From IMG/VR virus record IMGVR_UViG_2534681992_000031: a stretch of DNA of 9,656 nt; one strand, given 5' to 3'. The position numbers and the translations under genes were made by a program. The stretch is from a virus (Duplodnaviria; Heunggongvirae; Uroviricota; Caudoviricetes). The notes below the pieces were generated by a model. It did not search any database and was not told the DNA's origin. It saw nothing but the letters and a program-made list of their open reading frames with translations. Shown one piece after another: positions 3,521 to 6,607 of the stretch. The stretch's first letter is position 1. The number at the start of each line of letters is the position of its first letter.

Positions 3521-3895
3521 ATGAAACTTAAATATTCTGGCTTAACTGCCAGTGGCAACACTCACCCTAAATTTACGCGCGGTGATATTTACCGCGACCA
3601 GTACGGCGGCACGGTAATGATTAAGGGCGTGGAAGAACGGCGCGTAACCTACCGCCGTGAAGGTTACGAATATGATTGCGTGATGCCTGTTTATCAGTTC
3701 CGGCGTGATTTTTCTCTGGTACAGACCGCGCCGCATAACGTGCCCACCAGCAACGCCAGGGCACGGGCAAACATCCAGAAGCTGAAAACCATGATTAACG
3801 GATTCAGGGGTAAAAATGAAACTGGCACCGAACGTAAAACAGCAGTCACGCGGCATAAAACACAAAGAAACAGAAGTCATTATTTTTGCGGGTAG
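3521..3895 (+). CDS. Hypothetical protein, 124 aa; 3-prime end overlaps the primase start by 80 nt in another frame
   Basis: ATG at 3521 with GGAG 10 nt upstream; ORF runs to TAG 3893-3895. Basic C-terminal tail. The unusually long overlap lowers confidence in the exact extent. Confidence 0.4.
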   Translation: MKLKYSGLTASGNTHPKFTRGDIYRDQYGGTVMIKGVEERRVTYRREGYEYDCVMPVYQFRRDFSLVQTAPHNVPTSNARARANIQKLKTMINGFRGKNETGTERKTAVTRHKTQRNRSHYFCG

Positions 3896-5570
3896 TGATG
3901 CCTGGGCACACGCGAAACAATGGCAGGAACATGATGCGCGTATGGCCGGAGATAATGAGCCTCCTGTGTGGCTTGGGGAGCAGCAGTTATCAGAACTGGA
4001 TAAGCTGCAAATTGTGCCGGAAGGCAGAAAATCCGTGCGCATATTCAGGGCCGGATATCTTGCGCCAGTAATGATAAAGGCGATTGGCCAGAAGCTGGCG
4101 GCGGCAGGCGTACAGGATGCAAATTTTTACCCTGATGGTATGCACGGTCAGAAGGTGGAGAACTGGCGCGAATATCTGGCCCGTGAGCGCCAGAATCTTT
4201 CTGATGGTCTGGTCATTGAGCTTCCGGTAAAGCAAAAGGCGCAACTTTCGCAGATGGCGGACAGTGAGCGCGCGCAGCTGCTTGCCGATCGCTTTGATGG
4301 CGTTTGCGTACATCCTGAAAGTGAAATCGTTCACGTATGGCGTGGCGGGGTATGGTGTCCGGTCAGCACAATGGAACTGAGCCGCGAAATGGTGGCGATC
4401 TATTCAGAGCACAGGGCCACTTTCAGCAAGCGCGTAATCAATAACGCCGTGGAAGCGTTAAAAGTTATTGCCGAACCAATGGGCGAGCCGTCCGGCGATT
4501 TGCTGCCGTTCGCCAATGGTGCGCTTGACCTGAAAACGGGGGAATTTTCCCCGCACACGCCGGAGAACTGGATCACCACGCACAACGGCATTGAGTACAC
4601 GCCACCAGCACCAGGGGAGAACATCCGCGATAACGCGCCAAACTTTCATAAATGGCTTGAGCACGCAGCCCGAAAAGACCCGCGCAAGATGATGCGTATA
4701 TGTGCCGCGCTGTACATGATTATGGCGAACCGGTACGACTGGCAGATGTTTATTGAGGCCAGCGGAGACGGCGGGAGCGGTAAAAGTACATTCACACACA
4801 TAGCCAGCCTTCTGGCAGGGAAACAGAACACGGTAAGCGCTGAAATGACATCGCTTGATGATGCTGGTGGACGTGCGCAGGTTGTCGGGAGTCGTCTTAT
4901 CGTCCTGGCAGACCAGCCGAAATATACAGGCGAAGGAACGGGCATCAAGAAAATCACGGGCGGCGACCCCGTGGAAATAAACCCGAAATATGAAAAGCGT
5001 TTCACGGCGGTAATCAGGGCGGTGGTGCTGGCGACCAATAATAACCCGATGATATTCACCGAACGGGCCGGAGGTGTGGCACGTCGTCGCGTGATTTTCC
5101 GTTTCGACAATATTGTTAGTGAGGCCGAAAAAGACAGGGAACTACCGGAAAAAATTGCGGCTGAAATCCCCGTCATTATCCGCCGCTTGCTGGCGAACTT
5201 TACCGACCCTGAAAAGGCGAGGGCTTTACTACTGGAACAGCGTGACGGTGATGAAGCACTGGCAATAAAGCAACAGACGGATCCGGTTATTGAGTTTTGC
5301 CAGTTCCTGAATTTTCTGGAGGAAGCGCGCGGCCTGATGATGGGTGGCGGTGGTGATTCAGTGAAGTACACGACCAGGAACAGCCTTTACCGCGTCTATC
5401 TGGCGTTTATGGCATACGCAGGCAGGAGCAAACCGCTAAACGTGGCTGAGTTCAGCAAGGCCATGAAGCCAGCGGCGAAAGTTTACGGGCATGAATATAT
5501 TACGCGAAAAGTTAAGGGAGTAACGCAGACCAACGCAATTACAACAGACGATTGCGACGCGTTTTTATAA
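3816..5570 (+). CDS. Replication primase/helicase, P4 alpha-like / D5-type P-loop NTPase, 584 aa
   Basis: Strong RBS CAGGGG five nt before the ATG at 3816; Walker A GDGGSGKST, Walker B-like LIVLADQ, and an N-terminal primase-like region (EVIIFAGSDAWAH, RAGYLAP resembling the EGYATA primase motif). Sits just upstream of an iteron cluster. Confidence 0.85.
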   Translation: MKLAPNVKQQSRGIKHKETEVIIFAGSDAWAHAKQWQEHDARMAGDNEPPVWLGEQQLSELDKLQIVPEGRKSVRIFRAGYLAPVMIKAIGQKLAAAGVQDANFYPDGMHGQKVENWREYLARERQNLSDGLVIELPVKQKAQLSQMADSERAQLLADRFDGVCVHPESEIVHVWRGGVWCPVSTMELSREMVAIYSEHRATFSKRVINNAVEALKVIAEPMGEPSGDLLPFANGALDLKTGEFSPHTPENWITTHNGIEYTPPAPGENIRDNAPNFHKWLEHAARKDPRKMMRICAALYMIMANRYDWQMFIEASGDGGSGKSTFTHIASLLAGKQNTVSAEMTSLDDAGGRAQVVGSRLIVLADQPKYTGEGTGIKKITGGDPVEINPKYEKRFTAVIRAVVLATNNNPMIFTERAGGVARRRVIFRFDNIVSEAEKDRELPEKIAAEIPVIIRRLLANFTDPEKARALLLEQRDGDEALAIKQQTDPVIEFCQFLNFLEEARGLMMGGGGDSVKYTTRNSLYRVYLAFMAYAGRSKPLNVAEFSKAMKPAAKVYGHEYITRKVKGVTQTNAITTDDCDAFL

Positions 5571-5583
5571 TTTTTTGTAAAAG

Positions 5584-5808
5584 CCCTCTACCCCATCTAC
5601 CCGAATGAAATAAATACATATTATTCAACATGATAAGTGGGTAGAGGGCCAGGTAGAAGGCTAATAAAAGCTCTCTACCTCTTCTACCTGATTTTATCAG
5701 TTTCAGGTAGCAGGGTAGACGGCAGGTAGAGGAGCCCCAAAAGCTATCTACCCGCTGAAAGCCTCGCCATTACTGACATGATGAGCATTCGGGTAGATGG
5801 GTAGAGGG
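5584..5808. repeat. Iteron cluster, putative origin of replication
   Basis: About 12 copies of the core GGTAGA / TCTACC in both orientations, arranged as close pairs (8-12 bp apart) at 5588/5596, 5640/5652, 5674/5683, 5714/5725 and 5792/5800, with further copies at 5706 and 5747. The outermost blocks ccctctaccccatctaccc (5584-5602) and gggtagatgggtagaggg (5791-5808) are reverse complements, and pairs flank AT-rich spacers (5603-5637 and 5690-5704). Confidence 0.6.
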
Positions 5809-5854
5809 GGGGGAGGCACAACTAAAAACTTTTTAAACGAGGGGGTGAAAATAA

Positions 5855-6169
5855 ATGCGCATACATCAAAATCACTTAACAAACATGCCAGCCGAAAACA
5901 TGAATCAGGGGCGACAAATGACCAAAATTCGCAGAGACAGAACAGAGCCAAAATATAAAGCGTTAGACATGACTGAGCATACCTTAAAGGTGGCAATCAG
6001 AACGATAGACCGCCATGCGGGGGAAGGATACGCGAAAGCACATCCCGACCTGATAAGCGCATTCATGACCACGACGGCGGCAAACTTTGCCACGCTGACA
6101 GAACGGGAGATTGCCGAAGCGGAACAGGTAACAACCATCAACGTTAAAACCGGAGAGGGGGCAGTATGA
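5855..6169 (+). CDS. Hypothetical protein, 104 aa, translationally coupled to the downstream SSB-like gene
   Basis: GAGGGGG RBS before the ATG at 5855; its stop TGA 6167-6169 overlaps the ATG at 6166 (ATGA). No recognisable motif. Confidence 0.5.
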   Translation: MRIHQNHLTNMPAENMNQGRQMTKIRRDRTEPKYKALDMTEHTLKVAIRTIDRHAGEGYAKAHPDLISAFMTTTAANFATLTEREIAEAEQVTTINVKTGEGAV

Positions 6170-6576
6170 CGGCACAGATAGCCGCTTACGGGCGGCTGGT
6201 GGACGACCCGCAGGTAAAACAGACCAGCAAGGGCACACCAATGACGCTGGCTCGTATGGCGGTATCGCTGCCATGCAGCCAGGCACAGGACGGACAGGCG
6301 ACGTTATGGCTGTCGGTCATCGCATTTGGCAAGCAGGCCGACTACCTGGCTAAACATCAAAAAGGCGATGTTGCCAGCGTATCCGGCACGATACAGGTTA
6401 GCCAGTGGACCGGACAGAACGGGGAAACGCGGCAGGGTTATCAGGTTATCGCAGACAGTGTAATCAGTGCCAGTGCTGCCCGTCCTGGCGGGAGCCGACG
6501 CAAGACCACAGGCACACAGGGTAATCAGCCACCAGCTGGAGGCGATGACCCCTACGGTGACAATATTCCTTTCTGA
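6166..6576 (+). CDS. ssb: Single-stranded DNA-binding protein (SSB-like OB-fold), 136 aa
   Basis: OB-fold pattern comparable to bacterial SSB (LWLSVIAFGKQADYLAKHQKGDVASVSGTIQVSQWTGQNGETRQGYQVIADSVI), a Gly/Pro-rich linker, and an acidic C-terminal tail ending DDPYGDNIPF (compare the canonical DDDIPF). Confidence 0.75.
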   Translation: MTAQIAAYGRLVDDPQVKQTSKGTPMTLARMAVSLPCSQAQDGQATLWLSVIAFGKQADYLAKHQKGDVASVSGTIQVSQWTGQNGETRQGYQVIADSVISASAARPGGSRRKTTGTQGNQPPAGGDDPYGDNIPF

Positions 6577-6584
6577 ACATCATG

Positions 6585-6607
6585 GCCGGAGAAAATCCGG
6601 CTTTTTT
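6585..6607 (+). terminator. Intrinsic terminator downstream of the SSB-like gene
   Basis: Stem GCCGGA(6585-6590)/TCCGGC(6596-6601), loop GAAAA, followed by TTTTTT (6602-6607). Confidence 0.6.

Follow-up and report, generated by a model that had tools for sequence, protein, structure and literature searches.

Gene content of the island

The window, by which is meant the whole stretch of 9656 bp that was analysed, has its main genes all on the + strand, among them a gene for a DUF4222 protein and the following:

1–1239, + strand: int, tyrosine integrase
1649–1858, + strand: alpA
3816–5570, + strand: pri-rep, the Pri-Rep gene, 584 aa with a D5_N domain, an SF3 helicase, an origin-binding domain at the C-terminus and no primase domain that could be recognised
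5855–6169, + strand: small ORF, hypothetical
6166–6576, + strand: ssb, island SSB, a probable replication accessory (Pfam SSB, E 5.7e-17)
7228–9117: fusion gene of a ClpP-like prohead protease and a major capsid protein, 629 aa

With its integrase, AlpA and pri-rep, transcription in one direction and a PICI attachment site, the window belongs among the PICI-like islands, as a Gram-negative PICI of the EcCICFT073 type; the size taken for such elements is about 10–12 kb, to be compared with the 9656 bp at hand. Of the complete genomes, RM12581 and RM13514 of E. coli O145:H28 are the closest, and their island is located between cspD/yljB and clpS, the attachment site listed for EcCIIHE3034 and EcCI18098. 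The origin region described below matches 443 of the 5426 complete E. coli genomes, and part of the window matches 1940 of them.

Compared to RM12581, about 554 bp are missing from the window somewhere between int and the DUF4222 gene, and RM12581 has an additional ORF of 774 bp directly after int. The intergenic region between int and alpA (1240–1650) is AT-rich with 31–37% G+C and probably holds the regulatory sequences of the island. The ssb gene, found in the same gene order in CFT073 and other islands, is intact in the window (136 aa); the RM12581 gene of the same length (L001, 12667–13077) has an internal stop and carries a pseudogene annotation. Between ssb and a small ORF at 7004 there is a noncoding stretch of about 430 bp (6577–7003, ~38–42% G+C), which holds a lone GGTAGA at 6965 and in Rfam gives only sub-threshold matches, to ctRNA_p42d and snR75. 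No portal, terminase or connector genes are present in the window beside the capsid fusion at 7228–9117. In RM12581 clpS comes within about 1.4 kb of the fusion gene, and related islands have at this position either separate capsid and decoration genes or terS and a capsid gene.

The iteron cluster downstream of pri-rep

The region between pri-rep and the small ORF is filled by a cluster of short repeats in both orientations, arranged as follows:

5587–5592 and 5596–5601, − strand: left iteron pair, spacing 9, at 17 and 26 nt past the stop codon in 10 of 10 E. coli relatives
5604–5637: AT-rich gap, 34 bp with 82% A+T, probable DNA unwinding element
5640–5657, + strand: iteron pair, cores at 5640 and 5652, pointing away from the left pair
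5674–5688, − strand: iteron pair, cores at 5674 and 5683
5706–5730, + strand: iteron triplet, cores at 5706 (GGTAGC), 5714 and 5725
5747–5752, − strand: single iteron
5755–5776, + strand: conserved G+C-rich non-iteron block, CTGAAAGCCtCGCCATTACTGa, inside the 45-bp gap 5747–5792
5792–5805, + strand: right iteron pair, cores at 5792 and 5800, forming the outer inverted repeat with 5587–5601
5817–5854, + strand: conserved leader with the Shine-Dalgarno sequence GAGGGGG of the next gene, invariant alignment columns, ATG at 5855

An earlier reading of this DNA, made from the sequence only, had counted about 12 GGTAGA sites on both strands in close pairs, and this count stands, with 11 exact copies and one degenerate site, GGTAGC at 5706, in 5587–5805. 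The whole window has 12 exact copies of GGTAGA, so that 11 of the 12 are in the cluster; the one at 6965 is the only further copy, and a second GGTAGA cluster is absent from the window. Shuffling of the whole window gives a mean of 2.0 copies, with none of 200 shuffles reaching 12, and a uniform model expects 0.11 copies in 222 bp (Poisson P = 5.5e-19). The first core, at 5587, is located 17 nt past the stop codon of pri-rep, which ends at 5570. The motif GGTAGA(G/A/T)G that had been put forward as the core fits 8 of the 12 copies; the extended consensus of the iteron is nRGGTAGAnRG. The outer blocks are reverse-complementary as had been claimed, with arms of 16 nt at 5592–5607 and 5786–5801 that are 100% complementary. 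The spacers had been described as AT-rich, and this applies to 5604–5637, 5662–5672 and 5691–5703, but not to the right-hand 45-bp spacer (5753–5791), which holds the G+C-rich block. Nowhere in the region is the DNA less stable than in the 34-bp gap separating the first two pairs, and the 30-mer starting at 5608 (5608–5637) is among the least stable 0.1% of all 30-mers in the window. A period of 10.7 bp describes the positions of the sites (R = 0.80, a value reached by 52 of 5000 random placements); this phasing statistic is moderately strong, about 1%, and would put the iterons on one face of the helix. The leader at 5817–5854 is probably outside the origin proper.

Rfam, searched in E-value mode with the whole window, gave sub-threshold chance matches only, and a match to MIR2617 at 5582–5663 was rejected as a mere reflection of the inverted repeats. 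The origin region gave no match by blastn in the phage collection. A scan of 5450–5950 found neither a sigma-70-like promoter nor a terminator, and this has a bearing on what the cluster is for. Iteron origins often double as autoregulatory operators, and the cluster, with its position between two co-directional gene blocks and its last iteron pair about 50 bp before the next start codon, might be chiefly the operator or promoter of the downstream operon (hypothetical gene, ssb and capsid gene), bound by a regulator. The result of the promoter scan argues against such a role, as do two findings given below.

The Pri-Rep initiator

Pri-Rep gives Pfam matches to D5_N, DUF5906 and Pox_D5. Residues 194–432 match the helicase of SaPI5 PriRep (7OLA, E 7e-15) and residues 488–576 match the origin-binding domain of P4 alpha (1KA8, E 7.7e-6), indicating a helicase of the SF3 type with a winged-helix origin-binding domain at its C-terminus, as expected of a PICI/SaPI-type initiator. 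It is identical to the Pri-Rep of EcCICFT073 in 576 of 584 residues (99%). The identity to P4 alpha is 40% over 434 residues and covers residues 324–756 of alpha only. The N-terminal part of P4 alpha carries the primase, and this part is missing from the window protein; its residues 1–160 have no match in Pfam and resemble a PHROG primase family only weakly and in part. The sequence-only reading had labelled 3816–5570 a primase gene, a label not supported by these comparisons, according to which the product is better described as a helicase-initiator.

A homologue search with Pri-Rep listed 120 matches, all of which are at least 99% identical, and the diversity of its relatives was instead taken from a scan of one genome per species, which gave 32 relatives. 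In nine E. coli alleles, all with GGTAGA, residues 488–584 are nearly invariant and the differences are found mostly in the N-terminal ~150 residues (window 3816–4300, residues 1–160).

Conservation of the cluster and iteron specificity

A search for the same iteron in related islands had been proposed as a check of the origin reading, and the GGTAGA cores are indeed conserved in position in 10 E. coli islands, whose intergenic DNA is 77–100% identical to that of the window, and ~77–86% between sub-lineages, with the RGGTAGA cores fixed while the spacers diverge. The cores are located 17, 26, 70/72, 82, 104/105, 113/114, 145, 156, 177/178, 222–224 and 230–233 nt past the stop codon. The mean identity is 0.88 in core columns and 0.74 in the other columns (Mann-Whitney p = 2.5e-7, a value that overstates independence, as the 10 sequences are related to each other). 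The sub-lineages differ in the core flanks (GAGGG or GACAG), and the interior arrangement varies. The first AT-rich gap is 44–46 bp in the relatives, in Morganella and in P4 crr.

More distant relatives have the following iterons:

Shigella: protein 90% identical, GGTAGA in 11 copies
Morganella morganii: protein 51% identical, ATGAACA(C/G)T in 11 copies with spacings 9, 44 ... 44, 8
Aeromonas tecta: protein 49% identical, iteron CAGTGCC
Serratia: protein 45% identical, iteron GTGAACAGT with a TGAACA core

The window spacings of 9, 44 ... 45, 8 match the layout in Morganella. In the alignment of the C-terminal domains, MGNAxIxP...RKYLYHAYLxYM is common to Morganella, Serratia and P4 only, and the iterons of these three all have a TGAACA core; the window and A. 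tecta differ in the MGNAxIxP segment. Judged from these alignments, the scaffold of the origin is old, with iteron and binding domain changing in concert, and there are indirect but consistent indications that the C-terminal domain is what reads GGTAGA. This makes the island family a clean natural case of an initiator/iteron specificity that has been switched on a fixed scaffold, the iteron being swapped with the C-terminal domain. It also speaks against the cluster being chiefly an operator, as the repeats change with the C-terminal domain of the initiator across species.

In the Morganella morganii H1r origin (L012, 3863–4280) both long gaps are AT-rich and without the G+C-rich block, and the initiator has 794 aa with a Zn-ribbon N-terminus as in P4 alpha. 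Most of the Pantoea and Erwinia relatives (~43% identical, alpha-like and full-length) have no obvious repeat within 420 bp downstream of the gene, and their origins may be located elsewhere, as in P4.

The homologous region in EcCICFT073

The match to the origin region in CFT073 sits in the island between roxA and phoQ, which is EcCICFT073. For this island Fillol-Salom et al. 2018 (ISME J, PMC6092414, Fig. 2b) present a pri-ori fragment that maintains a temperature-sensitive plasmid, whereas the pri-Δori and Δpri-ori versions fail to do so. Plasmid pJP2027, with pri and the intergenic region to about L002 8382, is maintained at the restrictive temperature, and pJP2028, which ends at about L002 8074 and does not contain the homologue of the iteron region, is not (L002 being the CFT073 locus). 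By mapping of the primers given there, the Δori clone ends about L002 8074, 4 bases past the stop codon, and the pri-ori clone at about 8382, and the segment required in EcCICFT073, L002 ~8075–8382, is then the homologue of 5574–5880 in the window. The iterons are not singled out as essential by this deletion, because the conserved block was lost with them, as was the leader of the following gene. The legend of Fig. 2a in the same paper describes E. coli PICI origins as opposed iterons that flank an AT-rich stretch.

These data also bear on the rival explanations. In the ortholog the homologous region is needed for replication (PMC6092414), and taken together with the promoter scan and the change of the repeats with the initiator this makes a role chiefly as operator hardly credible. 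Another model is offered by P4, where crr is likewise found directly 3' of alpha, with two sites spaced by 9 bp and then a gap of 43 bp, and where the ori proper lies 4.5 kb from crr; the cluster would by this model be a replication enhancer or copy-control locus, and synthesis would start elsewhere in the island. The window, however, has only the lone GGTAGA at 6965 outside the cluster, and in the plasmid experiments with EcCICFT073 pri and this region sufficed for maintenance without other island DNA, so that a crr-like role is very unlikely.

PICIs are also described as carrying helper cos sites somewhere in the island (PMC6092414), and the cluster might accordingly be a cos or pac signal for the terminase of a helper phage. 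In EcCICFT073, however, the exact 11-mer GGGCGGCGACC is found at L002 11634 and 12374, ~3.3–4 kb downstream of the origin, and these are presumably the two cosN sites (cos1 and cos2) of that paper. The iteron region itself is without similarity to cosN, and the sole cosN-like 12-mer of the window falls within the coding sequence of pri; the probability of a packaging signal in the cluster is negligible. The 12-mer in pri, GGGCGGCGACCC at 4958–4969, has one mismatch to lambda cosN and is kept in all relatives (CFT073: L002 7459); it was considered as a packaging site and rejected as a coincidence of the coding sequence. The two extra copies of the 11-mer in CFT073 lie 3' of its capsid genes. 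Outside pri the cosN-like 11-mer is absent from both the window and the RM12581 island, and the window island may thus be packaged differently.

We conclude that 5571–5816 very probably serves as the origin of vegetative replication for this Gram-negative PICI, an island of the EcCICFT073 type. The proposal of an origin beside the initiator gene with a satellite-like layout is in this way borne out, with the help of an EcCICFT073 region that is homologous and needed for pri-dependent maintenance of a plasmid. For the window island itself the anatomy, the conservation and the domain homology are direct observations, and the requirement for plasmid maintenance would carry over by analogy with the ortholog. 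An origin of this kind is already documented and experimentally validated for E. coli PICIs and is not a new kind. The cluster fixes the place of the origin in an E. coli island family that is very common and has otherwise mainly annotation value, and the exact iteron map can be used for origin probes or incompatibility tests.

Proposed mode of initiation

A possible course of events can be drawn from the work on SaPI Rep (PMC9371898) and the anatomy of the window. After induction of the island, Pri-Rep would bind the 12 RGGTAGA iterons by its C-terminal winged-helix domain, and the phased sites on one face of the helix might then allow a higher-order Pri-Rep complex to form. The opposed pairs on either side of 5604–5637 would position hexamers of the SF3 helicase, a loading geometry suggested by the orientation of the sites. 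The AT-rich 5604–5637 is the predicted place of melting, from which the helicases would unwind outward, and the separated strands would be coated by the SSB of the island or of the host.

The conserved G+C-rich block

The block in the right-hand gap, CTGAAAGCCtCGCCATTACTG at 5755–5775 (21 bp, annotated to 5776), has the consensus CTGAAAGCCGCGCCATTACTGG and is nearly invariant in the 10 E. coli islands and in Shigella. A. tecta has two near-copies despite its different iterons, and the block is absent from Morganella, where the layout of the origin is the same as in the window. Further copies are found at L002 8258–8278, L013 3952 and 4097, L047 9158, L164 2501–2526 and L168 ~577–597, and the block is also present at loci L058, L081, L158 and L159.

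An exact scan of viral contigs for the 15-mer GCCGCGCCATTACTG gave at least 120 matches, a number in which chance matches are expected at the size of the collection. Among the 120 matches listed, 47% are in a 335-bp segment with a 6-mer repeated at least five times, compared with 2.6% of 531 control segments from the same contigs. The repeat units round the block are at least six (TGGACA, TGTGCG, AACTAT, GTAACA, TGTCAA and GGTAGA). In lambdoid phages of the HK75, HK106 and mEp234 type the order is three TGGACA, the block and three TGGACA, all inside the gene for replication protein O, and within another O-like gene the block is flanked on either side by four TGTGCG. The AACTAT array with its block adjoins a gene for a primase-polymerase-like protein of 754 aa.

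Among plasmids, 790 records match the block at 23 or more of 26 positions. In the P1 family the oriR has the order DnaA box, five GATC heptamers, CTGTAAGCCGCGCCATTTCTGG, five RepA iterons and repA, and canonical P1 has GCAGGCCGCGCCACGTCTGGC at the corresponding position. The latter is presumably the "G+C-rich stretch" of the P1 origin core that Brendler et al. reportedly described in 1991, and which is regarded mainly as a spacer. In two small plasmids the block adjoins rep. A literature search on the block sequence found nothing relevant, and a review from 2016 (PMC5043065) says of the G+C-rich sequences flanking A+T stretches in origins that their role "has remained unclear".

The block is probably a functional element of the origin. 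That it has a sequence-specific function of any kind, and is not a passive spacer, is a possibility that we put forward tentatively and consider somewhat less probable than not. If it has one, the block would be read by a host component that is shared by origins using Pri-Rep, lambdoid O, P1-type RepA and the Rep of small plasmids. The block might be the one new lead at this locus, the cluster being otherwise of a known type, and its conservation across unrelated initiators would make the question of the G+C-rich flanks testable by point mutation.

Similarity of the block to the G4 priming signal

The primer template in oric of phage G4 (3970–3997, start at 3998) reads ...GAAAGCCGCCGTCCCTACTGC and has GAAAGCCGC and TACTG in common with the block. 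The block ends in TTACTG. In G4 the shared GAAAGCCGC...TACTG is located at 3979–3999, and the CTG of this second motif is where the annotated primer begins. The G4 genome has only two fuzzy matches to the motif, both in oric (3889 and 3979), and shuffled genomes have a mean of 0.47. The G4 motif (L163), AAAG(G)CCGCC-N4-5-CTACTG, is thus present twice, at 3889–3909, where the distal hairpin has its base, and at 3979–3999, at the primer start; we know of no description of this duplication of the oric motif.

The block might from this mark the site of the first primer made by DnaG, starting at CTG as in G4, which would account for the priming of an initiator without the primase part of alpha. The signal in G4 depends on three stable hairpins, however, and the window is without them: 5690–5782 folds with −10.8 kcal/mol (z = −1.2, equalled by 18 of 200 shuffles) as compared to −28.5 kcal/mol (z = −5.1) for G4 oric. 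The block also accompanies initiators of the AEP primase-polymerase type (A. tecta, L159), and it is missing from Morganella and P4, the proteins of which carry the Zn/Toprim part. No convincing copy of the block was found in phages alpha3 and phiK, nor downstream of oriR in R100, where a primase-only G site is located. A DnaG site is on these grounds unlikely. It was also considered whether the block compensates for a missing primase, an idea that is not cleanly supported and was dropped.

Comparison with known origins

Compared to P4, the likeness of the window lies in the initiator, with the 40% identity over 434 residues of alpha including the origin-binding domain, and in crr, which shares the place 3' of the initiator gene, the pair spacing of 9 and a gap of 43. 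The iteron of P4 is different, as the sequence-only reading had stated: the window has no copy of TGTTCACC, by comparison with the annotated type 1 repeats of P4. P4 furthermore needs a separated ori and crr, whereas the window has a single cluster; P4 alpha brings its own primase in the N-terminal part, which the window protein does not; and neither ori nor crr of P4 has a copy of the conserved block.

The origins of the P1 family oriR and of the lambdoid O genes have in common with the window a G+C-rich GCCGCGCCA-NNN-CTGG between or beside the iterons, near an unstable A+T stretch. The initiators that go with the block are unrelated, being Pri-Rep in the window, RepA in P1 and O in the lambdoid phages, with none in G4.

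The SaPI origins are similar in organisation. They consist of 6–12 short iterons with an AT-rich centre and at least two opposed iterons on each side (PMC9371898), and the window, with 12 sites and the − strand cores at 5587 and 5596 opposed to the + strand cores at 5640 and 5652 across the AT-rich gap, has the same organisation. As in SaPIbov1, SaPI1 and SaPI5 the origin is located directly 3' of the initiator gene (the stop codon of pri-rep ends at 5570 and the first core is at 5587), and SaPI Rep and PriRep are self-loading SF3 helicases with a C-terminal winged-helix domain, to which the predicted architecture of Pri-Rep corresponds. In contrast, the iteron sequences of the SaPIs are unrelated to those of the window, whose host is Gram-negative, and PriRep5 has a fused AEP primase domain that Pri-Rep is without.

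EcCICFT073 is the nearest of the known systems. There are differences, the intergenic DNA being only ~77% identical to the window and the core flanks GAGGG in the window and GACAG in CFT073; the interior has FF-RR-FFF in the window, with 12 sites in all, and F-RRR-FF in CFT073, with 11. The window island is inserted between cspD and clpS and EcCICFT073 between roxA and phoQ, and the fusion of ClpP protease and capsid in the window corresponds to separate capsid and decoration genes in EcCICFT073. The gene order is nevertheless the same in both (DUF4222 gene, pri-rep, origin, small ORF and ssb), the GGTAGA core, the AT-rich gap and the conserved block are all present, and most of the sites are found at the same distances past the stop codon, namely 17, 26, ~70, 104/105, 113/114, 177/178 and 222–233 nt.
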